Source of the DNA: Actinomycetota bacterium
Lineage (GTDB): Bacteria > Actinomycetota > Thermoleophilia > BMS3ABIN01
Direction: 5' to 3'
DNA: 64,000 nt
Assembly: GCA_016235065.1 (NCBI GenBank)
Contig: JACRMB010000004.1
Location: 3,629-67,628 of the forward strand
The position numbers were made by a program, and so were the translations under genes. Of the stretch, positions 27,302 through 49,542 are shown piece after piece (the stretch's first letter is position 1; every line of letters starts with the position of its first letter). The notes beneath the pieces are model-generated. The model made no database searches. It was not told where the DNA came from and worked only from the letters and a program-made list of their open reading frames with translations.

Positions 27302-29953
27302 ATGCGGAGTAAATCCAGGCTGGTCCTGATTGCAGCGGTACTTCAGACAGCGCTTTTGATAGCCGTTTTCCTTCTGTCAGTAGATACCGCCACTGCTGGA
27401 TATCCAGGCATGATCCGGGTGTCAACAAACAGCAGTGGCGCCGAAGCGCACGGTGACCTGAGCTTCGCCTCGGCGGACTACAGAAGTTCTGCTATCAGCG
27501 GATCGGGTCGGTACGTAGCCTTCGAATCGCGAGCCACCGATCTGGTTTCTGGTGATACCGACGAACTCAGCGATATCTTTGTCAAGGACGCTGAGACTGG
27601 TGCGACTACGATGGTATCGACTGATTCTGCGGGCGCCGCGGTCTATTCTGAAAGCATAAGGCCATCGATTTCCACGGATGGACGTTTTGTCACGTTCACA
27701 TCAGATTCTCCAGATCTTGTAGCGGGCGATACCAATGGCGTCTCGGATGTTTTCCTGAAAGACACCCAGACGGGAGTGACCACCCGGATCTCAACCGATT
27801 CGTCCGGTGTTCAGGCGAATTCTTATGGGTTTTATTCTGCTATCTCAGGTGATGGGCGTTATGTGGCTTTCGAATCAGATGCAGACAATCTGGTTGCAGA
27901 CGACACCAATCAAGCAACAGATATTTTCGTCAAGGACACCCTAACCAGTGTGACTGCCAGGGTTTCCACTGATTCATCCGGCAACCAGGCCACGCGCACG
28001 GATACTCCCTGGTTCGGAAACAGCATCAACATGGCGCCGACGATCTCACATGATGGCCGCTATGTTGCTTTCCAGTCATTCGCCGAGAACCTTGCAGCTG
28101 GGGATGCAAACGGCTGCTGGGACATATTCATCAAGGATACTGTGACCGGAGGCACAACTATAGTATCTACCGACACAGCTGGCTTTCAGAGTAACTTCCA
28201 CAGCTATTATCCGTCTATCTCCGCCGACGGGCGCTATCTTGCGTTTGAATCCTGGTCCAACAACCTTGTCGCTGGTGATACAAACTATAGCTCTGATATA
28301 TTCCAAAAGGACATTCTGACAGGCGTTACCATGAGGGTCTCAACCAGTTCGTCAGGAGACCAGGGAGCCTACAATACTCCCTTTCTGGGTGGCGGTTCCT
28401 TCACACCGACGATCTCCGCCGACGGGCGATATGTCACTTTCATTTCCGAGGCTGCAAACCTGGCGCCTGGAGATGTAAACCGGGAGCGCGACATCTTCGT
28501 CAAGGACACAGTTACCGGCGCAACCGCGCTGGTCTCGTCCGACGCGGTGGGAAGAAACGGCATCGGCTACAGCTACGGCCCGGCCATTTCCGCGGACGGC
28601 CGCTACATTTCATTCCTTTCCGAAGATTACCTGCTGGTCCCTGATGACACCAATGCCGCCCGCGACTACTATAGAGCCCGTAACTCCCTCGCGACCAACC
28701 TCTATTTTCCCTGGTACGACAATCTCTACGGGCGCACCTGGCTGATGATGGCCAATCCAGCCGGCAGCAGGACCAGTTCTTACTATAACTTCCTGGAAGG
28801 CGACGCCCTGGATGCGAACATCTCTGTAGCTTCTGGCAGCACCGCATTTCGCCGCTATGATGGCCAGATGGGCGGGCCGGCGCAGTCCTTCGCTACCAAA
28901 TTCCAGCCTCTAGTCAGCGAGCGTTCGCTCTATGGCAGCTCATTCGAAGAGGTCTGGGCGACGCCTTACAAAGAACTGGATTCCCACTACTACTGGCCTA
29001 ATTATCTGGGTTCGTCCATGGACATGTGGGTGCTGGCTGCCAATCCTGAGGAGAATGGCGAGGCGATCCAGGTGGATCTGACCATTTTGACTGAAGGATC
29101 GCCCGGCACGCCGGTCACACAACAGCAGGTGATCCAGCCTGGGGATAGCTGGACCCCGATCGTTCCCGGACTTGCGGGCTATAGCGTTGAGGTCGAGGCT
29201 TACAGGGTGGGTGGTGCCCCGGACAATCCTGCCGACGCGCGCAAGGTGATCGCCTCCGAGCGCTCGCTGATGGCAGGCGCCTTCAACGAGATGCCGGGTA
29301 TCCCGGCGTCGCGGCTCAGCGATCACTGGCTCTGGCCCTGGTATGACAGTCTCAACAGCCTGGACTTCATCTGTGTCGGTAATCCCGGCAGCCAGCCGGT
29401 CTGGGTCTCTGTTTATGTGGGTGGCGTGCTCAGGGGTACGCCCCATCAACTTGCCGCAGGGCAGGTGCAAAACTGGGGCAGCTATCTGGAGAGGTACGCC
29501 GACGGTCCGGTGGAGGTATACGGCTGCGCCAACGGCTCAGTACCCTGTGATACTCCCGCTGACATCTATGCTTCGCAGGCTGTGGTATTCGGTCCTTCAT
29601 ATCAGGAGACGTCCGGAATCAGATATGAAGACCTGCTGCCGACAGCCCACTGGACCTGGTACGACATGAGCACGCCAGGCTCAGCTGATTGGGTTCTGGT
29701 TTCGAATCCAAACGATTACGAGATCTATTATGAGATCAGCATGCCCGGCCTGGATACAGCCGGGGACATTCGCGCCCATGGGATCCTTGGGCCGGGAGAC
29801 ACAGTTACTCCCACATTCCCTGGTTTTATCGGTGGCCCGGTCCAGGTAAGCGCCTGGCGTGATTCCCAGAAGAACGTGACTGCGAGCATATACAGTTCGC
29901 AGCGGGTTCTCTGGAACGGCTATTTCAACGAGCTGACTGGTTTGGGCTTTTGA
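27302..29953 (+). CDS. secreted protein: N-terminal TolB-like (PD40-type) beta-propeller repeats plus four copies of the shared ~105-aa C-terminal repeat module
   Basis: Signal peptide; repeated GRYVAFES.A.NLV.GDTN...DIFVKD blades; C-terminal repeats (about 28683..29950) with WPWYD, WVLVANP, GGPVQV and ASQRVLW motifs. Confidence 0.8.
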   Translation: MRSKSRLVLIAAVLQTALLIAVFLLSVDTATAGYPGMIRVSTNSSGAEAHGDLSFASADYRSSAISGSGRYVAFESRATDLVSGDTDELSDIFVKDAETGATTMVSTDSAGAAVYSESIRPSISTDGRFVTFTSDSPDLVAGDTNGVSDVFLKDTQTGVTTRISTDSSGVQANSYGFYSAISGDGRYVAFESDADNLVADDTNQATDIFVKDTLTSVTARVSTDSSGNQATRTDTPWFGNSINMAPTISHDGRYVAFQSFAENLAAGDANGCWDIFIKDTVTGGTTIVSTDTAGFQSNFHSYYPSISADGRYLAFESWSNNLVAGDTNYSSDIFQKDILTGVTMRVSTSSSGDQGAYNTPFLGGGSFTPTISADGRYVTFISEAANLAPGDVNRERDIFVKDTVTGATALVSSDAVGRNGIGYSYGPAISADGRYISFLSEDYLLVPDDTNAARDYYRARNSLATNLYFPWYDNLYGRTWLMMANPAGSRTSSYYNFLEGDALDANISVASGSTAFRRYDGQMGGPAQSFATKFQPLVSERSLYGSSFEEVWATPYKELDSHYYWPNYLGSSMDMWVLAANPEENGEAIQVDLTILTEGSPGTPVTQQQVIQPGDSWTPIVPGLAGYSVEVEAYRVGGAPDNPADARKVIASERSLMAGAFNEMPGIPASRLSDHWLWPWYDSLNSLDFICVGNPGSQPVWVSVYVGGVLRGTPHQLAAGQVQNWGSYLERYADGPVEVYGCANGSVPCDTPADIYASQAVVFGPSYQETSGIRYEDLLPTAHWTWYDMSTPGSADWVLVSNPNDYEIYYEISMPGLDTAGDIRAHGILGPGDTVTPTFPGFIGGPVQVSAWRDSQKNVTASIYSSQRVLWNGYFNELTGLGF

Positions 29954-29988
29954 TCAGCAGGCGGGTGCCAGGCTGAAATTGCTTGATA

Positions 29989-31239
29989 TCAACCTGAAGG
30001 CGCCACCGCCGGCGTCGCCGGCTGTACCGGCAATATCTGGCCGCAGGTGGGACTGGTCGGCTTGCCGTTGAAACGATCGTCCAGCCACATGGTCACTGTC
30101 GGTCCCGAGACTTTGGCCGCTACCTGGTGGCCGATGCCGCCGAACCACATCGTGGTCAGGTTTGAGCCGGCATCGCATGAGCGTTGAACATAAAGCATCG
30201 TGGTGTTCGGCAGCACTACCTGGTCGTCCAGGCCCTGGGCGATCAGCAGCGGCTGGTCCGGCGGTAGCACCGCAGGGGTCTCACTAGTGGAAGCGCTGTA
30301 CCATGCCGGAAACGTGACCGGATTGTTCTGGAAGAAGTCCTGCCCGAGCTCTTTCCTTATCAGGGCTTCGTCTCCACCCTTCGCCAGGCAATCATTGGCC
30401 ATGGACTCATACCTTTTCTGCCCCGACGAAGATATGACGTCGTCGACGGGGATATCCGGATAGACGCCGGGCCAGGCGACCAGGACCTCGGGTCCGATGA
30501 CCCAGCCTACAACCGACTGGTATTGCTCGGAAAACAGCGTCGCCAGTTCGGCGGCAGGTGCGGCGGCAGCCGTCGCGACAAGGTCCAGCTCGGGAGCGTA
30601 AGACTCTGATTCCATGGCAGTGAAGAGGGCCGCGTGGCCTCCCTGGGAGTGCCCCCAGACGGCATATTCCTTTCCCGCATACGCGGCTTCGACCCGCTGA
30701 GCAGCCCGGACGGAATTGATGACATCCCTGGCTTCGTCACGGCCGACCAGATAGCGCTCGGTGCCCGGCGTACCGAGGCCGGCGTAATCGGTGGCGGCTA
30801 CCACCCAGCCGCGCGCCAGCATCTCCGAAAGCCAGCTCATGTCCCCGATCGGATCCTCGGTACGCGACGGGGCGCAGGCGTCGCCCATCCCCACGGTCGG
30901 ATGAGCCCAGGCGACTACTTTGCGTTTTTCCGCCGGTGCCGGCCCCTCCGGGTAGAAGACCATGCCGGACGAGGCGGTCATCGTGCCGTCAGACTGCTGG
31001 CTGAGATAAAGGACACGCACTCCCTGTCCGCCGCCGGGAATCGAAACATCCAGCGGTTCCTGGCTGATGATCGTGCCGGGAGCTCCGGCAGGCAGGGGTG
31101 ATGGCGGGGCATAGAAGGATTCGAGAGTTTTTTGCCTCTCGTCCTCCTTGATATCTTCACGGCCGACCTTTATCGCTAACGCGAACAGGGCAATGAGTAT
31201 CACTACTCCAACAGCGGTCAATAAACGGTGTCTTGCCAC
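29989..31239 (-). CDS. secreted/membrane-anchored alpha/beta-hydrolase (lipase-like)
   Basis: GHSQGG nucleophile motif; N-terminal signal-anchor; GTG at 31239 (GAAGG RBS) preferred because the ORF-track start at 31335 overlaps the kinase gene. Confidence 0.6.
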   Translation of the reverse strand: MARHRLLTAVGVVILIALFALAIKVGREDIKEDERQKTLESFYAPPSPLPAGAPGTIISQEPLDVSIPGGGQGVRVLYLSQQSDGTMTASSGMVFYPEGPAPAEKRKVVAWAHPTVGMGDACAPSRTEDPIGDMSWLSEMLARGWVVAATDYAGLGTPGTERYLVGRDEARDVINSVRAAQRVEAAYAGKEYAVWGHSQGGHAALFTAMESESYAPELDLVATAAAAPAAELATLFSEQYQSVVGWVIGPEVLVAWPGVYPDIPVDDVISSSGQKRYESMANDCLAKGGDEALIRKELGQDFFQNNPVTFPAWYSASTSETPAVLPPDQPLLIAQGLDDQVVLPNTTMLYVQRSCDAGSNLTTMWFGGIGHQVAAKVSGPTVTMWLDDRFNGKPTSPTCGQILPVQPATPAVAPSG

Positions 31240-31310
31240 GAAGCCAGCCTTCGGTTTTGCGTTCAAGTCATTCCTCCTGAATCGATTCTGATGACAAAGC
31301 AGGCAGACAG

Positions 31311-34094: not shown

Positions 34095-34307
34095 TCTGAG
34101 AGTACCTTCCCAATTCACTCTTTAGCTAAAACAGGAGTTATTCCTGTTGAACGTAACTTCATGCGGCTACCAGTTCGCCTTTGAGTATCACCGGCGTTGA
34201 AGGGCGTCAAACTTTTGTGTTGAACTGTGATGAGATGATATAGAGTGACGGAATGCGTCATGCTCGCCTGGTCATTTGTCCAGGTCGTGATTCCAGGATG
34301 GGAAAAA

Positions 34308-35980: not shown

Positions 35981-36010
35981 GGGGCATCTCCACTATATGA
36001 GCCCGGAACG

Positions 36011-37038: not shown

Positions 37039-38283
37039 ATGAACCGCCTCGCGGTCGCGACGATCGTCGCAAAAAATCACATCTCCTACGCGCGCGTGCT
37101 CGCGGAGTCTTTCAGGGAACACCATTCGGATGTTCCGTTCCATGTCCTGCTGGCAGACGAGATCGACGGGCTGTTCGATCCGGCGAACGAACCGTTCGAA
37201 CTTCTCACCCTGAAGGACCTGTCCATCCCGCATCAGGAGCGCTTCCGCTTCAACTACGCGCAGCAGGAACTAAGCTATGCCTGTACGCCGTATCTTCTGG
37301 AGATGCTTCTCGACCGCGGTTTCACTGCCGCGGCCTTCCTCAAGCAGGAAAGCCTGGTGCTGGATGATCTTTCTCCCGTCATGTCGGAGATGCTGCGGCA
37401 CCCGATCACGCTGACTCCGCACCTGCTGGAGCCCCTGATCGGCGAGGACGCCGCCGCCCGGGAACTCAATATCCTCCAGTCCGGCATCTATAACGTGGGT
37501 TTTCTCGGGGTCAGCGACTCCACTGCTGCGCGCCGGTTCCTCTCCTGGTGGCAGGACCGGGTCTACCGGCATTGCCGTCACGACGTTCCGGGAGGCATGC
37601 ACTTCGAGCAGCGCTGGCTCGACCTGGCGCCCGTCTATTTCGAAGGAACTCACATGGTGCGCGATCCCGGCTTCAACCTGGGCCACTGGAATCTCTCCGA
37701 GCGGGAGGTGCGAGTCTCCGCCAGCGGCCTGACCGCCGGCGGCAGCACCTTGCGGTTCATGCGTTTCAGCGGCTTCGAGCCGGAACAGCCCGAGGCAGTT
37801 ACCAGGTACAACGGGCGTCTGGAGATGGGGGATATAGGCCCGGCTGCGGACCTGTTCCGCAGGTATGCCCGCCTGCTTGACGAGGCGGGATATCAGGAGA
37901 CGAGCCTCTGGAAATATTCCTATGACAGTTTCGATAACGGGGTCGGTATCCCGTTTGTGGCCAGGCAGATTTACCGGGATCTAGGGGTGGAGGCTGAAGC
38001 ATTCGGCGATCCCTTCGAGTCATCTGGATCCGCCGGCTATTTCAACTGGTTACGTGAGCCGGCTGGGCGGGAATCCATCAATCCCTCCTCAAGCGAAGGA
38101 GCAGACGACGGCGGGATTGTGTCAAACCTCTGGCAGGGAGTCTACGAGAGGCGGCCCGACGTCAGGGCGGCGTTTCCCGATCTTGCAGGTTCGGACCACA
38201 GCGCCTTTCTGGATTGGGCTGAACGTTACGGTATTAATGAACACAGCATCCCCGAAGTCTTCCATCCGAAAGGCCGGCCGTAG
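37039..38283 (+). CDS. GT-A fold glycosyltransferase, GT8-like (paralog 1)
   Basis: Shares FARVLA.SFREHH, TPHLLEP, ILQSG and EQRWLDLAPVYFE motifs with the next two genes; DxD-like LVLDDL at the position where paralogs have YLDADI. Confidence 0.55.
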   Translation: MNRLAVATIVAKNHISYARVLAESFREHHSDVPFHVLLADEIDGLFDPANEPFELLTLKDLSIPHQERFRFNYAQQELSYACTPYLLEMLLDRGFTAAAFLKQESLVLDDLSPVMSEMLRHPITLTPHLLEPLIGEDAAARELNILQSGIYNVGFLGVSDSTAARRFLSWWQDRVYRHCRHDVPGGMHFEQRWLDLAPVYFEGTHMVRDPGFNLGHWNLSEREVRVSASGLTAGGSTLRFMRFSGFEPEQPEAVTRYNGRLEMGDIGPAADLFRRYARLLDEAGYQETSLWKYSYDSFDNGVGIPFVARQIYRDLGVEAEAFGDPFESSGSAGYFNWLREPAGRESINPSSSEGADDGGIVSNLWQGVYERRPDVRAAFPDLAGSDHSAFLDWAERYGINEHSIPEVFHPKGRP

Positions 38284-39226
38284 CGTGTTCCGGAAAAGAA
38301 GAAAAACCGGAGCCAGGCAGAAGTACGCCGCAGCCGCAGCCGGCACCATCATATCGAAGAATTATCTGCCCTTCGCTCGCGTTCTGGCATCCTCCTTCCG
38401 GGAGCATCACCCCGAGATTCCGTTCCACGTCCTGCTGATGGACGAGGTCGACGGTTGCTTCGACCCGCTCCGGGAGTCCTTCCCCATACTGAACCCTGGC
38501 GATGCAGGGATCACGGGTATCCCCGGTTTCGGGCGGGGCTACAGCCGCGAGCAGCTGCTCTCGGCGGCAAAGCCATACCTGCTTAGCCACCTGCTCGATG
38601 CCGGCCATGAGACTGCCGTCTACCTGGATGCCGATATCATGGTACTGGCAGATCTGATGGCGCCGCTCGGGGAAGCGGCGGCGCGGGGTGTGGTGCTGAC
38701 GCCCCATCTCCTGGAGCCCCTGGTCTCTGAGGACAGGGCGGCCCGGGAGCTCAACATCCTCCAGTCAGGATGCTTCAACGCCGGCTTTCTATCTGTTTCG
38801 GATCAGCCATCCTCGCGGCAGTTCCTCTCCTGGTGGCAGAAAAGAGTGAGGGAGCACTGCCAGCCGGCGGTAGCCGAAGGCATGCATCTTGACCAGCGCT
38901 GGCTCGACCTGGCTCCGGTCTACTTCGAGGATATGCAGGTCATGCGGCATCCAGGCTTCAACGTGGGACACTGGAACCTGCCCGAGCGGGCGCTGCTTCA
39001 GGATGAACGAGGCCTTACGGCAGACGGTGATCCCTGCTGTTTCTTCCACTTCAGCGGTTTCGATCCCGAGTGGCCGCAGGTCGTCACCAGATATAACGGG
39101 CGGCTGACGATGGATGATATCGGCCCGGCGGCGGCGGGGCTATTCATTCAGTACGCTTCCCTGCTCAAAGCCGCCGGCTATGAAGAGGCCCGGGATTGGC
39201 CATTCAGGAATCCTCTCGGGAAGTAG
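38237..39226 (+). CDS. GT-A fold glycosyltransferase, GT8-like (paralog 2)
   Basis: AVYLDADIMV (GT8-type DxD), TPHLLEPLVSED, DQRWLDLAPVYFE; start ambiguous (ATG 38237 overlapping upstream gene, or GTG 38285). Confidence 0.55.
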   Translation: MNTASPKSSIRKAGRSVFRKRRKTGARQKYAAAAAGTIISKNYLPFARVLASSFREHHPEIPFHVLLMDEVDGCFDPLRESFPILNPGDAGITGIPGFGRGYSREQLLSAAKPYLLSHLLDAGHETAVYLDADIMVLADLMAPLGEAAARGVVLTPHLLEPLVSEDRAARELNILQSGCFNAGFLSVSDQPSSRQFLSWWQKRVREHCQPAVAEGMHLDQRWLDLAPVYFEDMQVMRHPGFNVGHWNLPERALLQDERGLTADGDPCCFFHFSGFDPEWPQVVTRYNGRLTMDDIGPAAAGLFIQYASLLKAAGYEEARDWPFRNPLGK

Positions 39227-39265
39227 CCGGCTCCCATACATGAAAAGTAGCCGATCCTCTGAATC

Positions 39266-41692
39266 CTAAGGGGTAGTAGCCGGCCCCCGGAATCGTTTCA
39301 GGATGAACCCTCCGGGCTGGCGGCCGGGACCTTTTGTTACTTTACGGCCCCTGATACCGCCTAGTCGTCTGTTGATGAGATCCAGCCTGGCTTCCGGGCT
39401 GTGCATTTCGGCCATGTCACTGCGTGCTTTTTCCGCTTTAAGCCTCGCCTCATCCGGATTGTCATACACCAGTCGTATGTACGAGGCCGCTGCTTCCGTG
39501 TCTGGATCGGCCCAGGCATAACCCCTGGGATAAGGCGCGCATCCCCCGGGGACCTCTGTCATCGTGAACGGGACCAGGTAGCTGTTATCGTCGTCCATGA
39601 ATTCCAGGTTTCCCGAATACCCCGTGGCGATCACCGGTTTTCCATGCGCCATCGCTTCGGCCATGGTCAGTCCGAAACCCTCGGCCCGGTGCAGCGAGAC
39701 GTAGGCGTCGCACGAAGAGATCAGCGCCTGCTGATCCTCCCGACTCAGGTAACCGTCGATGACTCTGATATCAGGCCGGCCGGCGGCAGCCGCAGCCAGG
39801 CGCTCCATCTCCAGTATCCTTCTGTCACCGTTGATGGTCTTGATGATCAAAGCCGGCCCTTCACCGGGGTCGAAGGCCAGTTTGAAAGCTTCGATGACCG
39901 CCAGCGGATTCTTCCTCTCCATAACGCTGAGAAAATCGAAACAGAAGAGGAAGGAGAATCCGTCTGGAGGGCTTGAGTCTGTCAGTTGGCGGTCCGTGGA
40001 CAGGAGCGCCGGCGTGGAGACTGGCAGCGGGAACTTGTACACCGGTTTGCCGGTCGCCTCTGCGAGTGCTTTTACCGCATGATCGCTGTAAGTCCAGATC
40101 TCATCGACTGACCCCAGGGTCACGGGATCTATGCCGCCGGGATGCTCCTCCAGTTCCCAGGCCCACACCGCTATGGTGTAGCGTCCGTCGAAGAGTTCGA
40201 GGCCTGCATTGCTGGCGAAGACCGGGAACTGGTCGGCATTGACGCAGATGATCGAGATGTCGAAGCAGGCCGCGGCAGTCTGCAGATCGGAATCCAGTTG
40301 CCGCGACTGTGTAGCTTCGAGCGGCGCCATCGTGACATGAGGTATGCCGCCTGCCTTCAGTGTCTCGAGTATCAGACGGACGGATTCTCCCAGGCCACTT
40401 TGGCTATTGATGTAGCCGGCGACGTTGACGCCGGTGTCCATGCCAGGTTCAATGCTGGTCCTGCGGCGCCGGCCGCCCGTTTTTTTCGGCAGGCATTCGG
40501 ATGGTATGCCATGTTCCTTCCCGCCGTGCTCCAGCACCCAGTCGAGAAAGCGGTCAGCATCCGCGCCATGGATGTCGGGGAAGTTGAGCTTGAGGTCGAG
40601 GCGGCTGTCATGGATGAATGAGAGAAGGCGTGATATCCCGGCCTGAGGCGAAGAGGGAAGCGGCGAGTTGAGCCAGCTGGTGAACTCATCCGAACTGGCG
40701 ATGTCGAACGGGTCCGGGAACGGTTCCTCACCGGTTGTGTCCTCCAGTAATAATCGCCGGCAAGCCCGGCGCAGGTCCTTGCTGAAGCTGAGGCCGCCGG
40801 CAGCCGAGTCGAAGCCGAAGCCGCGGGGTGAGTCAGGGCTGCCGTGACCATGCTTTCGCAGTTGCCTGGCGTAGCGGTCACAGATCCGGGCGGTTGCGGG
40901 GTTCTGGCTGAGCAGGATGCGCGGCCGGGTCCCCTGATGCCGGCTCAAAAGGTGTGGCGCGTCCGGATCGAAGCCGCTGAGATGAAAGCAGCGTAGCGGC
41001 ATGCCATCTACCAGGAAGTCATCGTTCTCAAAAGTCAGGTTCCGGCTGGCAAGATTCCAGTAAGCCACGTTGAAAGCGGGGTCCCGCAAAACATGACGGG
41101 GGATGAAATCGGGCAGGATGTCCAGCCACCGCTGGTCGGCGAAATAGCCATCCGCCGGAGATATTATACAGTCACGCCGCAGCCGTTCCTTCCACCAGCT
41201 GAGAAAGTCACCGTTGCCGGCAGCCACTGCGATGAAACCGAGATTGAAAGTCCCCGCCATCAGCAGATCGGTTTCCCGCGGGGATAGATCATCCCGCGGC
41301 AGCGGCTCGAGAAGGTGTGGCGTCAGCACGATGCCATGTTGCCGGGCCAGGGCATCCACTTCATCCAGTGGTGCGTAGACATCCATATCGGCGTCGAGGT
41401 AGAGCACGACATCGCTACCCTGTCCGTGGAGATGGTCGATCAGCCATGGTTTCAGGGCGGAAGCAAGCTCCCTGGGCTCATAAATGGCAGCCATGGTATG
41501 GAAATCTCGCCGGTCGAGCGGGAGATCTTCCGGCCGGACAAGATCGAAGCCCTCGCCCTCGCCACTGAAGCCGCCCCCGACGTCATCGAATACAAGGACG
41601 CTGATCCGGTCGCCATGACAGGCCGAATATGAATCGGCCAGCACCCTGGCGAAAGGAAGGTGACTGCGGGAGATGATCGTGCAGGCTTTCAT
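39266..41692 (-). CDS. bifunctional glycosyltransferase: N-terminal GT8-like domain fused to C-terminal GT4 (GT-B) domain
   Basis: N-terminal VLYLDADMDV, TPHLLEP, DQRWLDILP; C-terminal GT4 signature RAEGFGLTMAEAMAHGKPVIATGYSGNLEF. Confidence 0.75.
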   Translation of the reverse strand: MKACTIISRSHLPFARVLADSYSACHGDRISVLVFDDVGGGFSGEGEGFDLVRPEDLPLDRRDFHTMAAIYEPRELASALKPWLIDHLHGQGSDVVLYLDADMDVYAPLDEVDALARQHGIVLTPHLLEPLPRDDLSPRETDLLMAGTFNLGFIAVAAGNGDFLSWWKERLRRDCIISPADGYFADQRWLDILPDFIPRHVLRDPAFNVAYWNLASRNLTFENDDFLVDGMPLRCFHLSGFDPDAPHLLSRHQGTRPRILLSQNPATARICDRYARQLRKHGHGSPDSPRGFGFDSAAGGLSFSKDLRRACRRLLLEDTTGEEPFPDPFDIASSDEFTSWLNSPLPSSPQAGISRLLSFIHDSRLDLKLNFPDIHGADADRFLDWVLEHGGKEHGIPSECLPKKTGGRRRRTSIEPGMDTGVNVAGYINSQSGLGESVRLILETLKAGGIPHVTMAPLEATQSRQLDSDLQTAAACFDISIICVNADQFPVFASNAGLELFDGRYTIAVWAWELEEHPGGIDPVTLGSVDEIWTYSDHAVKALAEATGKPVYKFPLPVSTPALLSTDRQLTDSSPPDGFSFLFCFDFLSVMERKNPLAVIEAFKLAFDPGEGPALIIKTINGDRRILEMERLAAAAAGRPDIRVIDGYLSREDQQALISSCDAYVSLHRAEGFGLTMAEAMAHGKPVIATGYSGNLEFMDDDNSYLVPFTMTEVPGGCAPYPRGYAWADPDTEAAASYIRLVYDNPDEARLKAEKARSDMAEMHSPEARLDLINRRLGGIRGRKVTKGPGRQPGGFILKRFRGPATTP

Positions 41693-41729
41693 GGCGTTCT
41701 AATTCTAATGGTATTTGCATCGCACATGT

Positions 41730-41759
41730 AGTCTGAAGGAGTCTGAAAGAGTCTGAAGG
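41730..41759. repeat. three tandem copies of 10-mer AGTCTGAARG in a divergent intergenic region
   Basis: aGTCTGAAGG aGTCTGAAAG aGTCTGAAGG between the glycosyltransferase fusion gene (-) and the LVIVD surface protein gene (+). Confidence 0.5.
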
Positions 41760-41832
41760 TGAAAATTCAAACCGATAATGTAAGTGGTATATATGAAGAT
41801 TAAAAACCACTGCTGATGGGAATCTTCGCGCC

Positions 41833-44800
41833 ATGATAGCAAAGACATCTATTCGCTGTGTTACTGCGGCAGTGCTGTTCATGTTTCTTGTTCTGCTGTA
41901 CGTATCCAGCGTAATGGCAGCGCCCGGGCCGGATATCAGCGGGCTTGTTTCTCCCACACACGCTGATGAGAACACCTGGTACTCGAACAACGATCCTTCG
42001 TTTTCCTGGAGCTCCGCGTTTGAAACCGGCCTGGCAGGTTCGTATTCGACGCCGGGCCATTCATATGATGTCGCTGTTTCGGGCATATATGCATATATTG
42101 CGGATGGGGGTTACGGACTTCGTATAATCAACATCTCCAATCCGGCAAGCCCGACGCTCGCAGGCTTTTACGACACGCCCGCCGCCGCCAGCGGTCTGGA
42201 CATCTCCGGCAGCTATGCTTATGTGGCCGACGATACTAGCCTGCAGATAATCAACATCTCCAACCCGGCCAGCCCGACTCTGGCTGGATCACTTGCGATG
42301 TCCAGCGCCGTCGACGTTGCCGTTTCAGGCGACTTCGCTTACGTCGCCAGCTATGGCTACGGATTGAGAGTCATAGATATTTCGAACCCGGCCAGCCCGG
42401 CGCTCAGGGGAACATTCAATACGCCGGGCATCGCCGTAGGAGTCGCTCTTTCGGGAAATCATGCGTATGTGGCCGACAACAACTCCGGCCTACAGATAAT
42501 CGATGTCACCGATCCGGACAATCCGGCGTTCGCGGGTGCATACAACCCAGGCTATTCATTCTTAGCGGCCAGAGTTTCCGGGACGCTGGCTTATATGGCC
42601 GCAGGCAGTTCGGGCCTTGTCATCGTCGACATCTCTGATCCGGCTAATACGTCACTGGCTGGAGCATACGATACACCGGGCAGTGCTCTCGATGTTGCTG
42701 TTTCAGGAATCTATGCATATATGGCGGATTATTCCTCCGGCCTGCAGATCCTGGATATCTCAAACCCGGCAAATCCGACGCTGGCTGGCTCCTACGCCAC
42801 GTTGCCGGCCAGTTATGCAGAAGACGTCGATGTCTCAGGCAGTTTTGCATACCTGAGCGACTATACCGTCGGCCTGACGATCGTTGAAGCGTCTACGGCC
42901 ACCGGTTATTCCTATATATTCGACCAGAATCCGGCAACGGTACCGGATACTGTTTCCGAGGGGGCCGATACCAGCAAGGCCTACACTGATACCGGCGATG
43001 GCATCTGGTATTTTCATGTAAGGGCAGTGGATCCCCTGGGTAACTGGGGCGCGGCCAGCCATCGTAAAGCGCAGATCGACACCGGAGCACCGGTTATCAC
43101 CAACATCCTGCCTTCGGGCACCATAACCACCGGCGATCCCGCTACCGTACAGGCAGACCTGAGCGACAGCATCTCCGGCATCGACGTCGCCACGGGTTCC
43201 GTCTCAGTTGACGGTACTGAACTGACAGGCTGCGTCGTCAACAGCTCGCTGGTGAGCTGCGATACCAGCTCGGCCGGTTTCGCTGAGGGGGCACACAGCA
43301 TATCGGTGACCGCCTATGACAACGCGGGTAACCCCAATACGGCCACCGGATCCTTCTCAGTCGACTCCATCGCTCCCTCTGTGACCGGCATTCAGCCTGG
43401 TGGCACGATCAACACCACTTCGACGACCATAAGCGCTGATTATAGTGATTCCGGTTCCGGCATCGACTCCGCGACTGCGACAGTCTACCTGGATTCAGTG
43501 CTTGTTACAGGATGCACGGCTGATGCAGTTAGCGTCAGCTGCCCGGTCACGGGGCTGTCTGTAGGAGCCCATTCGATCACAGTGTACGTCAGTGACAATG
43601 CGGGCAACACCGGATCGGGGTCAGGCAGCTTCACCATGACCCTGAGCCGGGACTACTACTGGGGACGTTATGACGGCACCAACAGTCTGGACTGGATCCT
43701 GCTGGGGAATCCGCCTGGTTCATCAGGGAACCTGACATTCGATCTTTATATCAGCACGGATGAGCAGTCACTGGCGCCATTCGTCATACCCGGCTATGGC
43801 GTGGGTGAGGTGCCGCCGGGCCAGTCGATAACTCCGATGTTCAACATGCCACCGGCGGGCCCGGTCAAAGCCTTGTCCACTACGGGCGGTCAGGCTATCG
43901 CTTCCCAGCGCATCCTCTGGAAAAGCAGGTATTTCGAAGAGGTGCCGGGGATCGAGGCAGGAAGCTTGTCCAGCCATTATTACTGGACCTGGTATGACCA
44001 GTTCTCACCAGGATTCTCCCAGGATGAGATCATCGTCGTCAATACCAACACGGAGCCGGTCATGGTGGAGATCTCCTTTACTGATGTGGCTCATCCACCG
44101 GCGGCCGATCCTGTGGACGACACTTTCCCGTTGCAGCCAGCTGGGACTCCCGGAGGCACGGATACCCTGAGACAGAGTTACCCGGGCAAGATGGGCGGCC
44201 CTGTGGAAGTCAAGGCATGGCTGGCTGGCGGTACATACGAGAGCGATCCCAGGAATGTGGTAGCAACCCAGCGGGTGATCAAGGACCAGGGTGCCGCTAC
44301 GGAGCATCTAAACGAGGTCCCCGGCATCCCGGCAGATGATCTCACCAGCGATTACTGGTGGACCTGGTACGACTGGAACAGCTCGGGAGCTTCCAACTGG
44401 GTACTGGTCTCAAATCCCGGCGCTGAAGCAGTCCATGTGGATATCTCATTCAGGAACGACCAGACAGGGACGATTGAGACCCTGGATGCCGACCTGCCCC
44501 CGGCAGCTCCCGGTGTCGCCCCATGGACGCCCAGCTTCGCCGGCAAAAAAGGTGGGCCTGTTGAAGTCAGGGCGTCGCTCGCCAGCGACCATAACCAGCC
44601 GCGTGACGTCATCGCCTCCCAACGATCGGTCTGGACCACATTCTTCGAAGAGGTGCCGGGCTTCGCGGCCTCGCAGCTATCGCCCCGCTATCTATGGACC
44701 TGGTATGACTGGAACAGCGCCGGCTCACAGAACTGGGTGATGGTAGCCAATCCGACCGCGGATACGGTTCACTCCGAGATCTCCTTCAAGGACTCGACTA

Positions 44801-45021
44801 CCGGAGAGACCAGGGGGGACGCCAATGTGATCCTCCAGCCGGCCGGCTCCAACGGGTCCATCAGGTACCTGCGCTTCGACGGATACATGGGAGGGCCCGT
44901 GGAAGTAAAGGCCTACCTGGAAGGCAGCGATTACGTAACCAGTCCGCGTGATGTCATAGCCTCCCAGCGGGTGCTATGGAACGGACAGTTCAATGAGGTG
45001 CTGGGAACTCTGCTGGAGTAG
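41833..45021 (+). CDS. secreted surface protein: LVIVD-repeat beta-propeller, Ig-like domains, and five copies of the shared C-terminal repeat module
   Basis: Signal anchor; repeats GLRIINISNPASP/GLVIVDISDPANT (LVIVD family); two two-Cys Ig-like domains; C-terminal repeats (about 43645..45018) with WTWYD, WVLVSNP, GGPVEV and ASQRVLW. Confidence 0.8.
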   Translation: MIAKTSIRCVTAAVLFMFLVLLYVSSVMAAPGPDISGLVSPTHADENTWYSNNDPSFSWSSAFETGLAGSYSTPGHSYDVAVSGIYAYIADGGYGLRIINISNPASPTLAGFYDTPAAASGLDISGSYAYVADDTSLQIINISNPASPTLAGSLAMSSAVDVAVSGDFAYVASYGYGLRVIDISNPASPALRGTFNTPGIAVGVALSGNHAYVADNNSGLQIIDVTDPDNPAFAGAYNPGYSFLAARVSGTLAYMAAGSSGLVIVDISDPANTSLAGAYDTPGSALDVAVSGIYAYMADYSSGLQILDISNPANPTLAGSYATLPASYAEDVDVSGSFAYLSDYTVGLTIVEASTATGYSYIFDQNPATVPDTVSEGADTSKAYTDTGDGIWYFHVRAVDPLGNWGAASHRKAQIDTGAPVITNILPSGTITTGDPATVQADLSDSISGIDVATGSVSVDGTELTGCVVNSSLVSCDTSSAGFAEGAHSISVTAYDNAGNPNTATGSFSVDSIAPSVTGIQPGGTINTTSTTISADYSDSGSGIDSATATVYLDSVLVTGCTADAVSVSCPVTGLSVGAHSITVYVSDNAGNTGSGSGSFTMTLSRDYYWGRYDGTNSLDWILLGNPPGSSGNLTFDLYISTDEQSLAPFVIPGYGVGEVPPGQSITPMFNMPPAGPVKALSTTGGQAIASQRILWKSRYFEEVPGIEAGSLSSHYYWTWYDQFSPGFSQDEIIVVNTNTEPVMVEISFTDVAHPPAADPVDDTFPLQPAGTPGGTDTLRQSYPGKMGGPVEVKAWLAGGTYESDPRNVVATQRVIKDQGAATEHLNEVPGIPADDLTSDYWWTWYDWNSSGASNWVLVSNPGAEAVHVDISFRNDQTGTIETLDADLPPAAPGVAPWTPSFAGKKGGPVEVRASLASDHNQPRDVIASQRSVWTTFFEEVPGFAASQLSPRYLWTWYDWNSAGSQNWVMVANPTADTVHSEISFKDSTTGETRGDANVILQPAGSNGSIRYLRFDGYMGGPVEVKAYLEGSDYVTSPRDVIASQRVLWNGQFNEVLGTLLE

Positions 45022-45068
45022 ATATCATACTTGTGCGTGTAGTTCTTTCTGCTGCCGAAGGTAGGGAT

Positions 45069-45275
45069 ATGAAGAGAACGGCAGCAATCATGGTGCTTCT
45101 TACGGTACTTGTCTCAACGAGCTTGCTTGTTCCGGCGGCAGCGCTGGCTATCGACAGCTCCCTTTCCTGGCCTGTCCGGGGCTTCGATTATCCATCCTGG
45201 TGGCACGACGAATACCTGGATCAAAGTTCCAGCGTCTCCCTGACCCGCATCGCTTCAACCGGATCGAATGCCTAG
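45069..45275 (+). pseudogene. possible truncated remnant of a secreted enzyme (signal peptide plus ~40 aa only)
   Basis: MKRTAAIMVLLTVLVSTSLLVPAAALA followed by SWPVRGFDYPSWWHDEY, then stop. Confidence 0.2.
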
Positions 45276-45397
45276 ATGGCGCAGGAGACAGGCACAGATT
45301 CCCGGATGGGCAGCAGGTATAAAAAACGAGTTAAAGGGTAGGATACCGGTGTCTTTACCCCTGCCATTAATGGCCCTGGTGAGCCGGAGGACAGGAA

Positions 45398-45613
45398 ATG
45401 ATCAGCAGGCTTCTGGATATCTGCATTGGTGCTATGTTGGTCGCTCTGGTGGCACTGACTGCGCAGCTCGCGTATCTCTACATCCAGCCCGCGGAACTCC
45501 AGGCCGAGCAACTCGCACAGAGGACTTCATCGCATCCAGTGGTTAACGGTCAGGTGATCAGCGAGATGCCTACGGCTGAGTGCATGGTCTGTCACGCCGG
45601 CAGTCTGCCCTAG
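45398..45613 (+). CDS. small TM protein ending in a CxxCH motif (possible N-terminal fragment of a NapC/NrfH-like cytochrome)
   Basis: One TM helix then ...TAECMVCHAGSLP-stop; resembles the membrane anchor plus first heme site of NapC/NirT-type cytochromes but terminates immediately. Confidence 0.2.
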   Translation: MISRLLDICIGAMLVALVALTAQLAYLYIQPAELQAEQLAQRTSSHPVVNGQVISEMPTAECMVCHAGSLP

Positions 45614-45637
45614 CGCTTCCATTCTCGCTATCAACCA

Positions 45638-46186
45638 GTGAGGTGCGTCATTAAGTCGAGCTGCATCAATGCTATTTCCGGATTATTCCTGCTTGTGGCC
45701 CTGCTCTTTGTGCTTGCACTAGCCGGTGAGGCCCAGGCGCAGACGGCGCCTGTGTGCGGCTCCGCCGGCACGCCCACTCCCGGGAGCCTGCATGCCTCGT
45801 TACTGCGGGAACCCCTGTATAACAGCGAAGGCAATTTTCTCAGCATTTCTTGGGAAGGCGCCATTCCACCTATGGAAATATGGATAGATGACGCGCTTTC
45901 CGAAATCACATACGTAAGCAATGGCGGCTCTGGACAGGCCCGAAACGAGCCCGAAACTGCGACGCACGTGGTGGCATTCATCACGCAGGGATACGCGCCA
46001 GTGTGCATAGAGGTGGCTGTCAGTCCTTCAGTGACCCAGGACGCCTATCCCGCAGCGCAGCAGGGCGAGTCTGTGCTACCGTCGACAGGTTTTGACACCA
46101 TCATGTTGCTCGCAGGCCTGTTGACATCCTTGGCTGGTGTCTTTCTGCTGCACCAACGAGCGCAATCACGAGAAAACCCTTTCTAG
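45638..46186 (+). CDS. small secreted protein with C-terminal LPSTG cell-wall sorting signal
   Basis: Signal peptide; C-terminus LPSTGFDTIMLLAGLLTSLAGVFLLHQRAQSR (LPxTG, hydrophobic span, basic tail). Confidence 0.6.
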   Translation: MRCVIKSSCINAISGLFLLVALLFVLALAGEAQAQTAPVCGSAGTPTPGSLHASLLREPLYNSEGNFLSISWEGAIPPMEIWIDDALSEITYVSNGGSGQARNEPETATHVVAFITQGYAPVCIEVAVSPSVTQDAYPAAQQGESVLPSTGFDTIMLLAGLLTSLAGVFLLHQRAQSRENPF

Positions 46187-46197
46187 GAAGGAAATCC

Positions 46198-46254
46198 TGG
46201 TGCCGAAGGTGGGAATCGAATCCACACCGGGGGTGACCCCGACCGGATTTTGAG
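46198..46254 (-). repeat. 57-bp copy of the 3' half of tRNA-Leu(CAA) (anticodon loop to 3' end), candidate distal att site
   Basis: Identical to 50970..51026 except one mismatch; the 5' half of a tRNA is absent here. Confidence 0.75.
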
Positions 46255-46416
46255 TTACGCGTCCGACTTCCCGGTTGTCAACTTAAAGTCCCAGAATAGC
46301 GCTGTAAATTTTGGTTTCAATGCTACGCGCTTCACGGCTTATGCTATCCCTTACTGCTTGGTCCCACGAATTTGGTTGGCAAAATTTGGTGGAAATGAGG
46401 TGAACAAGCAGGAATA

Positions 46417-49400
46417 TCACAAACCTGCACCGACCAACTCGTTGAAGTAGCCTTTCCACAGTACCCTCTGCGAAGCTAGCACATTTGCGGGATTCTCTTT
46501 TGATGACCCGTTCCATTGCCAGGCTCTGACCTGAACGGGTCCGCCGATGATGCCGGGGAAGCGCGGCGTTACTCGCTGGCCGGGCGCCAATACGCCGTGG
46601 TTGGTCGAGTAATAAGGATCTGCGGGATTGGCTGGATCGAGTTTGCCAGGCACTGAGATCTCGTAATAAATAGCGCTAGCGTTCGGGTTTGCGACTAGCA
46701 CCCAGTTGAGCGAGCCGGCCGATTTTTCGTCATACCAAGTCCAGTTCGCGGTTGGTTTAAGGCTATTTAGCGGCACGCCGGCAGTCTCCTCGTAAGAAGG
46801 CCCATAGATCACGATTTGGGAAGTATATATGTTAGCCGGACTGTAACAAGCCTCAGTGGTGTCAAAACAGGCCTTGACCTCAATCGGGCCGTCCATCAAT
46901 TTTTGCGGTGAGCTATCCCACCAAATGGTCGTGCCCGATGGAACGCCGTCGCTACTGGCCATCAGTTGACCGTGCAGGTAAAGAAAAAGATAAACAGGCT
47001 CGGAGTTGGGATTGCCGACAATGACTAGGTCGTTTGCGTTTTGGCTGTCATACCATGGCCACTCGTATTCGTTGCTCAATTTCGAGGCCGCGATGCCGGC
47101 CATTTCGTTAAACGAGTCACCCATCAGGATACGTTCCGAGGCGACGACCTTGCGAGCATCCGCAGAATTATTGGGCGAGCCACCGACCCGGTAGGCTTTG
47201 ACCTCAACTGGTCCACCGCTGTAGGGCCAGGTTGGCGTCCAGGTATCACCCGGCTGGATCACATGCCTATTAACGTAGATATCCGGCACAGGTATTTTGT
47301 TGATGTCTTCAACATTTCGTATAGAAATGTCAACCTCGACAGCTTCCCCATTTTCGGCCGGATTTGCAACCAGAACCCATTCAGAAGTCATGCTGCCGAG
47401 GTAGACCGGCCAATAATAGTGCGTGTCGAGATCATCGTATGAAGTGGACCAGACTTCCTCGAAAGAGTTTCCGAACAGCGAACGCTCGCTCGAGATGCCG
47501 TTACCATACTGGGACATGATCTTGATCGGGCCGCCGAGTCTTTTGTCGTACGAGCGGAACTGCGTTTCCCCATCATTGACACCGATGCCTTGTTCAAGAG
47601 AGTTGGTCTTCATCCAGAAGTCGACGATATTCGTTCCACTGCCAGGCATTTGCGCTGCTAGCAGCCACGTATGACCATAGATATTGTCATACCAGGGGAA
47701 GTAATAATGCATCGGGGTCGAGTATGACCAGTCAGCGGTCTGGGTATTGCCTACAACGTCGCTCACTTCAAGGTGCACGTTTTGAATGCCACAATTAGGA
47801 TTGAAATAAGAGACTTGGTCAACAGAAATCGTTGCCCGAGAAGTAACGACGATTCCATTCACAGTCAGCTTGACTGAATTCGGATTGACTCCCGACTTCG
47901 AGTCAGTATAAGAAGCATTGATTATTGCCGTGCTGGCCCAAACGTTTCCACTCGGGCTCGTTCCTCCTATTTCAGGTTTTGTCGTTTCGACTTCGAAGCT
48001 GCCATTAAGGGTCGCGCTGTTGCCAGCTTTGTCTCGCCCGACTATCAAGAAATCATGGTGTCCGTCTGAAAGGCCCGACGCCTGGCACCTCAACAGAGAT
48101 GAATCAGAGATATCGCAATTGGTAAGCGGCTGGCTGCTACCATCCAGATAAACCGCGCTTGCGGAGCTGTCTGGCCCCGATTGCTGATCGCTCAAAGTTG
48201 CACCGATTACGGTCGCGCTGCCGCTCCAGACTGGAGGAATGGCTTCGGAAATCGCAGGGGGCGCGAGGTCGACGCCGAATGGTGAGTCAGACAGCCCCGG
48301 CGTTCCGTCATTAGTCTCATACGAGATCGTTAGAGAGTGCCAGCCTGCAGAAAAGTCTGAAGTTGAGCAGCTGAGATGAGCGCCGACGAGCGAGCAGCCA
48401 GGCGCTGAGGTATCGTCGATATAAACGGCTACACTGCTCGAATCGATACCCGAACCGTTATCCGTTAGGTCCGCTTCAATCGCTTGGCTGGTCGTACGGA
48501 GCCAGCCTGAAGGGGAGATGTTTTGCGCTTGGAGAACCAGTGGTCCCCATGATGGGGTGATTCGTTCATAAAAAGGATGGCCCAAATCCGCAATGTTGTA
48601 ACAGCCTCCACCCGTTGCTCTTGCTGTGCAAAGAGTGCAGTTGTTGGAGTTATCTTTTTGGATAAATGCAATACTGGTACCATCCGGTGACCACGCGGGT
48701 TGACTATAAAATGGGGACCATGTCCATGTTCGTGTAATCACGGGTTGTGGTTGTGTGCCATCGGGCTTCATCGTATAGATTCCCGAGTCATTTGCATTGA
48801 AATAAACGTAACAGGCAATTTTGGAAGAATCAGGCGCCCAGCTTGGCATCGAATTGAAACTGGCTGGCCATCCATAGACGTTAAGAGCGGTCTGGTTTCC
48901 ACCATCGGGATTAATAAAAAAGATTCCATAAGTACCACTGTTGGCGTTGAAGGCGATCCTGGAACCGTCTGGTGACCAAGCAGGATTCTCGTAGGTACCC
49001 GAATTATTAGTCAGTTGATTCAGCTCACTTCCGTCGGAATTCATTACGTATAGCTTCTGAACACCGAAGCCAACGATTCCAAACGTCCTCGTAAAAGCTA
49101 TGCGGGAACCGTCGGGCGACCAGGTGGGGCTGTCATCGTAATTCGAGCCGAAGGTCAGCTGACTTATGCTCATATCCGATAGTCTGAGAACGTAAATCTT
49201 ATTAGTACCATTTCTGTTGCTGGAAAAAGCTATCTTGCTGCCGTCAGGCGAGAAGGCGGGTGACTGTTCGACCGCGGGGCTATTGGTGATACGAGTTAGG
49301 CCGCTGCGGTCAGGATTTACAGTGTATATCTCAGCATTGCCATCCCTATAAGAAACAAAAGCAATCTTGCCGTTTGGTTTTACAGTGGCATCCGCTGAGG

Positions 49401-49542
49401 ACGACATGGCCAGGATGGCGATTACTGAGAAGAGGAAGATAAACGCAAATGAGGATTTTTGGCGTGCGCTTTCAACGAACCCACCCATTGCGCCTCCAGA
49501 ATCTGGCATATCTGAGAGAAGCTTAATTGAAACGATTGCCAA
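46417..49542 (-). CDS. secreted surface protein: TolB-like beta-propeller, two-Cys Ig-like domains, and four copies of the shared C-terminal repeat module
   Basis: N-terminal signal; GKIAFVSYRDGNAEIYTVNPDRSG-type PD40 blades; Ig-like domains with GC...C pattern; C-terminal repeats (about 46420..47715) with FPWYD, WVLVANP and ASQRVLW. Confidence 0.8.
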   Translation of the reverse strand: MAIVSIKLLSDMPDSGGAMGGFVESARQKSSFAFIFLFSVIAILAMSSSADATVKPNGKIAFVSYRDGNAEIYTVNPDRSGLTRITNSPAVEQSPAFSPDGSKIAFSSNRNGTNKIYVLRLSDMSISQLTFGSNYDDSPTWSPDGSRIAFTRTFGIVGFGVQKLYVMNSDGSELNQLTNNSGTYENPAWSPDGSRIAFNANSGTYGIFFINPDGGNQTALNVYGWPASFNSMPSWAPDSSKIACYVYFNANDSGIYTMKPDGTQPQPVITRTWTWSPFYSQPAWSPDGTSIAFIQKDNSNNCTLCTARATGGGCYNIADLGHPFYERITPSWGPLVLQAQNISPSGWLRTTSQAIEADLTDNGSGIDSSSVAVYIDDTSAPGCSLVGAHLSCSTSDFSAGWHSLTISYETNDGTPGLSDSPFGVDLAPPAISEAIPPVWSGSATVIGATLSDQQSGPDSSASAVYLDGSSQPLTNCDISDSSLLRCQASGLSDGHHDFLIVGRDKAGNSATLNGSFEVETTKPEIGGTSPSGNVWASTAIINASYTDSKSGVNPNSVKLTVNGIVVTSRATISVDQVSYFNPNCGIQNVHLEVSDVVGNTQTADWSYSTPMHYYFPWYDNIYGHTWLLAAQMPGSGTNIVDFWMKTNSLEQGIGVNDGETQFRSYDKRLGGPIKIMSQYGNGISSERSLFGNSFEEVWSTSYDDLDTHYYWPVYLGSMTSEWVLVANPAENGEAVEVDISIRNVEDINKIPVPDIYVNRHVIQPGDTWTPTWPYSGGPVEVKAYRVGGSPNNSADARKVVASERILMGDSFNEMAGIAASKLSNEYEWPWYDSQNANDLVIVGNPNSEPVYLFLYLHGQLMASSDGVPSGTTIWWDSSPQKLMDGPIEVKACFDTTEACYSPANIYTSQIVIYGPSYEETAGVPLNSLKPTANWTWYDEKSAGSLNWVLVANPNASAIYYEISVPGKLDPANPADPYYSTNHGVLAPGQRVTPRFPGIIGGPVQVRAWQWNGSSKENPANVLASQRVLWKGYFNELVGAGL

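Follow-up and report, generated by a model that had tools for sequence, protein, structure and literature searches.

The 64,000-nucleotide stretch of DNA analysed here (the window; positions 3,629 to 67,628 of contig JACRMB010000004.1, assembly GCA_016235065.1, Actinomycetota bacterium) encodes three large proteins, designated A, B and C, which differ in their N-terminal parts and end in a common block of four tandem repeat units, here called the tetrad. In the list of open reading frames (ORFs) of the window, protein A has 883 amino acids (27302..29953, plus strand), protein B 1062 amino acids (41833..45021, plus strand) and protein C 1041 amino acids (46417..49542, minus strand). An original prediction, made from the letters of this DNA, had described them as three large secreted proteins with differing N-terminal domains; the ORFs lie at these coordinates, and the N-terminal domains, assigned by Pfam and NCBIfam scans, agree with that description. 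The N-termini of all three proteins resemble Sec signal peptides. The mechanical ORF of gene C begins with TTG; the start annotated by NCBI is an ATG 18 codons downstream (position 49488), which yields a protein of 1023 amino acids with a cleaner signal peptide (MGGFVESARQKSSFAFIFLFSVIAILAMSSSADA). In the NCBI annotation of this metagenome-assembled genome (MAG), labelled Actinobacteria bacterium, the three proteins are named 'hypothetical protein' or 'PD40 domain-containing protein'. Their N-terminal parts and repeat units are listed below; the units of A and B are delimited by alignment, a unit hidden Markov model (HMM) and a structural model, and those of C by alignment and the unit HMM.

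27302..28690, plus strand: N-terminal part of gene A, with a signal-peptide-like, hydrophobic N-terminus (amino acids 1-32) and a PD40/TolB-like beta-propeller (amino acids ~40-460; PD40 E 8e-19)
28691..28960, plus strand: A unit 1, amino acids 464-553, of the divergent 'YFPWYD ... SERSLYGSSFEEVWA' type, with eight strands in the model
28961..29299, plus strand: A unit 2, amino acids 554-666
29300..29617, plus strand: A unit 3, amino acids 667-772
29618..29950, plus strand: A unit 4, amino acids 773-883, terminus ...SQRVLWNGYFNELTGLGF
41833..43641, plus strand: N-terminal part of gene B, with a signal peptide, seven LVIVD repeats forming a propeller (LVIVD E 6e-77) and immunoglobulin (Ig)-like Big_13/Big_7 domains (Big_13 E 5e-8)
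43642..43950, plus strand: B unit 1, amino acids 604-706
43951..44325, plus strand: B unit 2, amino acids 707-831
44326..44661, plus strand: B unit 3, amino acids 832-943
44662..45018, plus strand: B unit 4, amino acids 944-1062, terminus ...SQRVLWNGQFNEVLGTLLE
47722..49542, minus strand: N-terminal part of gene C, with a signal peptide, a PD40/TolB-like propeller (PD40 E 1e-36, TolB E 3e-46) and Ig-like domains
47446..47721, minus strand: C unit 1, amino acids 608-699
47095..47445, minus strand: C unit 2, amino acids 700-816
46777..47094, minus strand: C unit 3, amino acids 817-922
46420..46776, minus strand: C unit 4, amino acids 923-1041, terminus ...SQRVLWKGYFNELVGAGL

Motif delimiting and alignment place four tandem units at the C-terminal end of each protein, each unit being 90-125 amino acids long and the whole tetrad about 430. 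Each unit opens with an aromatic strand, (Y/H)Y(Y/W)W-x-W-Y-D, and closes with a strand F-(N/E)-E-(V/L/M)-x-G; these boundaries are taken as the natural ones because no FNE strand precedes unit 1 in A, B or C. The motifs WxWYD, (D/N)WVLVxNP, PG, GGPVEV, SQR and FNEVxG recur along the units, and all three proteins terminate in ...SQRVLWxGxFNEhxG followed by 2-4 residues, as the conserved repeat skeleton and the common terminus had been described originally. The repeat number requires correction, as the 4 to 5 repeats per protein and roughly 13 copies proposed before become four in each protein and 12 overall, never five. Pairwise identity among the 12 window units ranges from 16 to 62%, and the units of A and C are colinear (A1 with C1 44%, A2 with C2 62%, A3 with C3 44% and A4 with C4 59% identity). 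When the unit HMM was run against the six-frame translation of the window, matches were confined to the ORFs of A, B and C, with four domains in each. The same search found no unit in the giant protein encoded at 27..7088 (plus strand; at least 2353 amino acids, with an ORF start that may lie upstream of the window), which contains five Big_13 Ig-like domains, a NosD/beta-helix region, CE2_N and PKD-like domains and was rightly described as sharing the Ig-like units without the module. Parts of this giant protein have homologs near tetrad genes in four other genomes.

No Pfam or NCBIfam model, those of SLH, the type IX secretion system (T9SS, Por) C-terminal domain and sortase signals included, covers the last 420-460 residues of A, B and C, whether full proteins or single units are scanned. 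Searches of PDB sequences with HMM profiles of the 12 units and of 90 tetrads returned chance matches only (Fab, chimallin, pectate lyase and CD1). The earlier remark that the module could not be placed in a known family thus holds for sequence families in Pfam, NCBIfam and PDB sequence searches, and no significant HMM match to a characterised family emerged.

The structural models place the module more closely. AlphaFold2 modelling of the B tetrad (459 amino acids, 90-sequence alignment) gave a mean predicted local distance difference test score (pLDDT) of 94.1 and a predicted template modelling score (pTM) of 0.92, and the more degenerate A tetrad reached a pLDDT of 91.6 and a pTM of 0.91. 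Both models are all-beta with about eight strands per unit, and since a pTM of 0.91-0.92 over four domains implies confident relative placement, the tetrad is predicted to be one rigid body rather than beads on a string. In the structural similarity search suggested together with the original prediction, the nearest fold proved to be that of TM1070/ASRT: in Foldseek comparisons with 48,164 chains, the solved structures of the ASRT family, two in number, took the first two ranks for the A and B models alike, well ahead of all other chains, and TM1070 (1nc7) was the sole match with probability 1.00 (template modelling score 0.67-0.68, normalised to the target).

ASRT and TM1070 define the ASRAH superfamily, whose eight-stranded beta-sandwich has a conserved tryptophan where strand 1 begins and a near-invariant asparagine that closes strand 2 and stabilises the tight turn leading to strand 3 (De Souza, Iyer & Aravind 2009, Biol Direct 4:25; PMC2739507). 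Each unit of the tetrad is likewise predicted to be an eight-stranded beta-sandwich superposable on TM1070/ASRT. The conserved tryptophan of (Y/H)Y(Y/W)W falls, in the A and B models alike, within strand 1 of every unit (W7, W115, W240 and W352 in B) and is invariant or nearly so in 90 homologs, while the asparagine of WVLVxNP ends strand 2 in all units of both models (N23, N134, N258 and N370 in B), is followed by a turn of 5-7 residues and strand 3, and is conserved in at least 90% of the sequences. The same study describes TM1070 as tetrameric, with the dimer interface forming part of the wall of its putative ligand cleft, and predicts that ASRAH domains bind sugars or peptidoglycan (PMC2739507). 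It also reports two arrangements of secreted ASRAH domains, dyads and tetrads, of which the latter are joined to an N-acetylmuramoyl-L-alanine amidase (PMC2739507). As judged from the models, the units probably belong to the TM1070/ASRT ('ASRAH') fold, with likely homology to ASRT, and the four-unit body may be a single-chain counterpart of the TM1070 homotetramer with an equivalent packing. The tetrad is linked to ASRT through structure alone. Its fold and its four-unit habit fall within a superfamily that was defined computationally in 2009 and has a merely predicted function; the module is regarded as a new, unannotated sequence family inside this known superfamily.

The sole Pfam family that recurs in the unit scans is DUF5719 (PF18986), a functionally uncharacterised family of actinobacteria (3 of 72 single units at E ≤ 1, best E 0.03). 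One homolog (P0144) scores 26.7 bits over a 40-residue stretch against the DUF5719 cut-off of 26.2, and another (P0243) 25.2 bits, whereas the Pfam scan gave no DUF5719 match in A, B or C. The two families occur in the same phylum, and the matches span just ~40-80 of the 319 profile positions. DUF5719 may correspond to the actinobacterial WhiB-linked ASRAH-dyad lipoprotein family of PMC2739507; the context of that dyad family (a lipobox, with WhiB and glycosyltransferase neighbours) was not seen for the tetrad proteins. In the literature searched, neither DUF5719 nor the envelope of Thermoleophilia was the subject of any paper, and the term 'ASRAH' occurred in the 2009 paper alone.

An exhaustive profile search, which covered 1.84 billion cluster representatives, matched 1,196 of them at E ≤ 1e-3 and 383 at E ≤ 1e-30. 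Among the best 150 cluster representatives, 138 contain four units, five contain eight, four contain seven, two contain three and one contains five, and some of the odd counts likely reflect truncated proteins. The repeat number, formerly given as variable, is thus fixed at four, and the possibility that the module is a variable tandem array was rejected on this ground. The eight-unit proteins consist of two full tetrads in tandem (P0039, 1607 amino acids; P0040, 1270 amino acids; P0045, 1375 amino acids; P0058; P0093). Within 208 four-unit proteins the tetrad is C-terminal, that is, located at most 10 residues from the C-terminus behind another domain, in 179 (86%), N-terminal in 14, alone in 10 and internal in five. 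Ten proteins comprise only a signal peptide and a tetrad (e.g. P0169, P0181 and P0254). The closest unit in a different protein shares its position (1-4) in 245 of 250 cases, and because nearest units keep their position in this way, the tetrad appears to be old and inherited whole, its four positions having diverged once, after which it passed from protein to protein as an intact block. Recent local duplication among A, B and C, which had been named at the outset as the finding that would speak against a genuine module, was rejected on the basis of this position identity and of the roughly 1,200 clusters that carry it.

When a single genome of each GTDB species was scanned, 111 tetrad loci emerged, all in MAGs labelled Actinomycetes, Thermoleophilia or Gaiellales save three short contigs (Proteobacteria, Geobacter), and no cultured organism was seen among them. 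Across 80 loci (1.05 Mb) there are 97 repeat-bearing ORFs, 86 of which have exactly four units, and single assemblies carry up to 12 tetrad ORFs. Tetrad genes in non-actinobacterial bins lie on contigs of 3-7 kb (L018, JAKALI010000422, 'Proteobacteria'; L056, DAIERH010000124, 'Geobacter sp.'), and further tetrad proteins bear the labels 'Acidithiobacillus ferrivorans' (P0091) and 'Longimicrobiales' (P0011). As the lineage restriction is otherwise strict, the contigs in such bins are probably mis-binned rather than products of horizontal transfer.

Partner domains were tallied from precomputed Pfam domains in the non-tetrad part of the 120 best full-length homologs, with spot checks. The most frequent partner is NosD or another right-handed beta-helix (29/120), followed by PD40 propellers (9/120), BNR, PSII_BNR or sialidase-like propellers (9/120), M23 peptidases (6/120), Ig-like domains only (6/120), SLT-type lytic transglycosylases (4/120), and cytochrome c, CAP and FG-GAP (2/120 each). 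SpoIID, LVIVD, GH114, Pectate_lyase_3, the thermolysin C-terminal domain and a carboxypeptidase-regulatory-like domain were found once each, and about one third of the 120 homologs lack a recognised partner. At least 15 unrelated kinds of domain occur as partners, and a signal-peptide-like N-terminus is present in 129 of 200 complete-looking homologs according to a crude hydrophobicity test. The sharing of one module by otherwise unrelated exported proteins, first noticed in the window, therefore extends to the homologs surveyed.

The anatomy, the count of four, the distribution, the partners, the predicted fold and the signature residues are the observations described above; homology to ASRT, a tetramer-like packing, glycan binding and an anchoring role are inferred. 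On balance, the tetrad is probably an ASRAH-fold block of a Thermoleophilia-like lineage that acts as a lectin-like, non-covalent anchor of exported cargo to a glycan of the producer's own wall. The four eight-stranded TM1070/ASRT-fold beta-sandwiches are predicted to pack as one rigid body of about 430 amino acids, which is appended to diverse Sec-exported domains, mostly at the extreme C-terminus. This lectin-like body would bind either peptidoglycan or a secondary wall polymer, and the binding would keep enzymes, propellers and redox proteins on the surface non-covalently, like the SLH or CWB2 triads in Firmicutes. Anchoring to the organism's own wall is favoured because the tetrad is fused to enzymes remodelling the organism's own sacculus (M23, SLT and SpoIID, with amidase in the Chloroflexi family) and because some cargo, such as cytochrome c, CAP and the propellers, has no polysaccharide substrate. 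A single ligand is suggested by the motif set WxWYD, NWVLVxNP, GGPVEV, SQR and FNEVxG, which is kept across all cargo and at all four positions. The monoderm look of the host, described below, also favours an anchor of this kind.

Several observations weigh against this interpretation. For comparison, authentic ASRT and TM1070 sequences were retrieved from PDB with an ASRT bait sequence, identical to 2ii7, and 120 PF07100 members were then collected. Unit profiles built from 754 units, pooled and per position, gave hhalign E values of 0.09-0.5 against the 120 PF07100 members and of 0.04-0.5 against ASRT and TM1070, with probabilities of about 1% or less and none of them significant, the template being shallow (Neff about 2). 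PF07100 was never reported by hmmscan of 72 diverse single units, and 1nc7 was not recovered by the profile search of PDB sequences. Because hhalign was non-significant in every configuration, sequence-level membership is not claimed; homology to ASRT would follow from the fold and the two signature residues, although convergence can occur among small beta-sandwiches. In place of the TM1070 ligand residues, the His and Cys of SHEshChhN, the units have the family-specific (D/N)WVLV. We know of no ligand for any ASRAH domain, and sugar binding is a prediction even for the founding members. No conserved companion gene, for example a polymer-modifying enzyme like CsaB for SLH, was found around the tetrad genes, and many partners are carbohydrate-active (beta-helix, BNR, GH114, pectate-lyase-like), so that a substrate-targeting carbohydrate-binding module (CBM) fits them equally.

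The sequence comparisons bear on the possibility that the resemblance to TM1070/ASRT is convergent, the tetrad units forming an independent beta-sandwich family to which no function could be transferred. Such convergence, with which the non-significant profile-profile and HMM comparisons to PF07100 agree, seems improbable, as the ASRT-family structures rank at the top for two independent models, both family-defining residues occupy the correct structural positions in all units, the short non-significant hhalign alignments still pair Asn with Asn in the correct strand register, secreted ASRAH families show the same dyad or tetrad habit (PMC2739507), and the sole recurring weak Pfam signal comes from DUF5719, an actinobacterial family. 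The partner survey speaks to a different matter, namely whether the tetrad is a CBM that targets enzymes to an external polysaccharide (a plant, algal or biofilm glycan) instead of the organism's own wall. This is unlikely, yet it remains plausible because beta-helix, BNR and glycoside hydrolase partners dominate: the commonest partners are carbohydrate-active or lyase-like, with NosD/beta-helix proteins joined by BNR/sialidase-like propellers, GH114 and Pectate_lyase_3, and sugar binding in general is what the ASRAH paper predicts (PMC2739507). A CBM accords less well with partners devoid of a polysaccharide substrate (cytochrome c, CAP, PD40/TolB-like and LVIVD propellers, and proteins with Ig-like domains only) or with M23, SLT and SpoIID, which act on the organism's own peptidoglycan. 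The nearly invariant motif set over all partners and positions points to one common ligand rather than varied substrates, and the occurrence of up to 12 paralogs per assembly together with tetrad-only proteins resembles anchor families such as SLH.

A module for protein-protein assembly into an S-layer-like lattice or a multi-enzyme surface complex, with no glycan ligand, is quite unlikely. ASRT and TM1070 do oligomerise and a physical interaction of ASRT with a rhodopsin has been reported (PMC2739507), the high pTM implies extensive inter-unit interfaces, and double-tetrad proteins exist; however, within a single-chain tetrad the tetramer interfaces would already be occupied, with no evident surface to spare for further oligomerisation, fusion to peptidoglycan hydrolases is a classic signature of wall-binding domains, and no dominant, highly conserved S-layer-like partner was seen. 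The original prediction had left the choice between an envelope-attachment and an export-targeting system, and of these attachment stands as the best-supported function. Export targeting, in which the module would be a sorting signal read by dedicated machinery in the manner of T9SS C-terminal domains or LPXTG, is barely credible: 86% of the tetrads do stop 1-10 residues short of the C-terminus and carry a conserved ...NGYFNEVxG(T)xLx motif there, but this motif is merely strand eight of unit 4, a rigid fold of ~430 amino acids far exceeds any known sorting signal, and about 14% of the tetrads are N-terminal, internal or stand-alone. In addition, A, B and C already have Sec-type signal peptides, no T9SS C-terminal domain, SLH or sortase-signal model matches them, and no conserved transporter or sortase-like gene neighbours the tetrad genes at the 80 loci.

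Among described systems, the amidase-associated ASRAH tetrad of Chloroflexi is the closest, as it is likewise secreted, comprises four tandem TM1070/ASRT-like units with the strand-1 tryptophan and the strand-2-end asparagine, is fused to a wall hydrolase and was proposed to mimic the TM1070 tetramer (PMC2739507). That family is described as always fused to amidase and as occurring in Roseiflexus, Chloroflexus and Herpetosiphon, whereas none of the 120 homologs of the present tetrad has an amidase, and they come from Thermoleophilia-like Actinomycetota with a far wider range of partners; the two families are set apart here by description. TM1070 (1nc7), ASRT (2ii7) and the other PF07100 proteins are stand-alone cytoplasmic proteins of ~125 amino acids encoded in sugar-metabolism operons, in contrast to the secreted tetrads, whose units lack the His and Cys of the TM1070/ASRT motif and show no significant sequence similarity to them. 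The SLH and CWB2 triads appear comparable in that a small, constant number of repeats builds a single pseudo-symmetric body, which sits at one terminus of many different exoproteins with no relation to each other, wall hydrolases included, with many paralogs per genome. They differ in having no sequence match to the tetrad and three units versus four. The SLH fold is helical and the CWB2 fold alpha/beta, compared with the all-beta module described here.

The tetrad family is not a categorically new system and is worth a domain-database entry, for which the fixed four units and position-specific motifs provide a good basis as a Pfam or NCBIfam model. About 1,200 protein clusters carry this 430-amino-acid module, which no domain database names, and are annotated as 'hypothetical' or by their N-terminal domain; placement in the TM1070/ASRT fold turns roughly half of each protein into a testable proposal for a cell-wall glycan anchor. 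The present results broaden the 2009 observation of one architecture, the Chloroflexi amidase tetrads, since the module described here is promiscuous, has at least 15 types of partner and occurs in another phylum. More tentatively, and with somewhat less than an even chance in our estimate, the tetrad might serve an uncultured, monoderm lineage of actinobacteria as its general system for displaying proteins at the surface, in which an ASRT/TM1070-derived single-chain pseudo-tetrameric lectin would non-covalently hold a dozen or more exoproteins per cell, among them wall hydrolases, beta-helix enzymes, propellers and c-type cytochromes, on a lineage-specific wall glycopolymer. Such a system would be a fourth independent anchor solution beside SLH, CWB2 and the choline-binding or LysM-type domains, and would supply the ASRAH superfamily with its first defined ligand and role. 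Confirmed binding would also explain the envelope decoration of a little-known subsurface/hot-spring Actinomycetota lineage and offer a fusion tag for surface display.

The genomic neighbourhood of the tetrad genes was surveyed with 769 non-tetrad ORFs from the 80 loci, which were clustered. The recurrent families reflect housekeeping synteny (glyA, a WecA-like GT4, atpA, topA, tmk, murI and holB), and the conserved neighbours suggested for checking, such as glycosyltransferases or exporters, did not emerge as a universal companion. In the window, gene B is adjoined upstream by three paralogous GT8-like genes (37039..38283, plus strand; 38054..39226, plus strand; 39266..41692, minus strand), which have a common GT8-like N-terminal domain with the motif ...KNH/YL.FARVLA.SF..HH... 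and fall in no recurrent neighbour cluster. The third of them additionally has a GT4 (Glycos_transf_1) C-terminal half, and the true start of the 38054..39226 ORF is probably later, as it overlaps 37039..38283 by ~230 nucleotides. A PSII_BNR (Ycf48-like) propeller-tetrad ortholog is conserved in 6-7 related MAGs (L013:5739-9317, L035:4874-8464, L043:7014-9212, L045:6879-9233 and neighbours), in the order glyA, BNR-tetrad gene, cytidine deaminase, Glycos_transf_4 (WecA/MraY-like) and atp operon. The contig of an M23-tetrad homolog has a single tetrad gene with wall-polysaccharide genes close by. The glycosyltransferases beside B, the WecA/MraY-like gene downstream of the BNR-tetrad gene and the wall-polysaccharide genes near the M23-tetrad gene are weak contextual hints of a link to the wall.

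The window also encodes a full-length heliorhodopsin (12595..13395, minus strand; PF18761 E 9e-103) and, on either side of gene C, two small secreted proteins of 182 amino acids (45638..46186, plus strand) and 168 amino acids (50182..50688, minus strand). Both small proteins have a sortase-type (LPXTG-like) signal composed of LPSTGF, a hydrophobic stretch and a basic tail, and neither matches a Pfam family. With signals of this type, the organism appears to use covalent wall anchoring as well. To our knowledge, heliorhodopsins are largely confined to monoderms, and the host looks monoderm on account of the heliorhodopsin gene and the two LPSTG-signal proteins. The presence of a heliorhodopsin alongside a fold named after a rhodopsin transducer is a curious coincidence; since the tetrads are secreted, the two are considered unlinked. 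Other likely envelope or secreted proteins of the window are a protein with two Lcl_C domains (51125..52204, minus strand; E 6e-62), two adjacent calcineurin-like phosphoesterases (52662..54260 and 54374..55924, both plus strand) and a GH25 muramidase (19945..20892, plus strand), whose unassigned C-terminal region of ~110 amino acids gave no match to the unit HMM.

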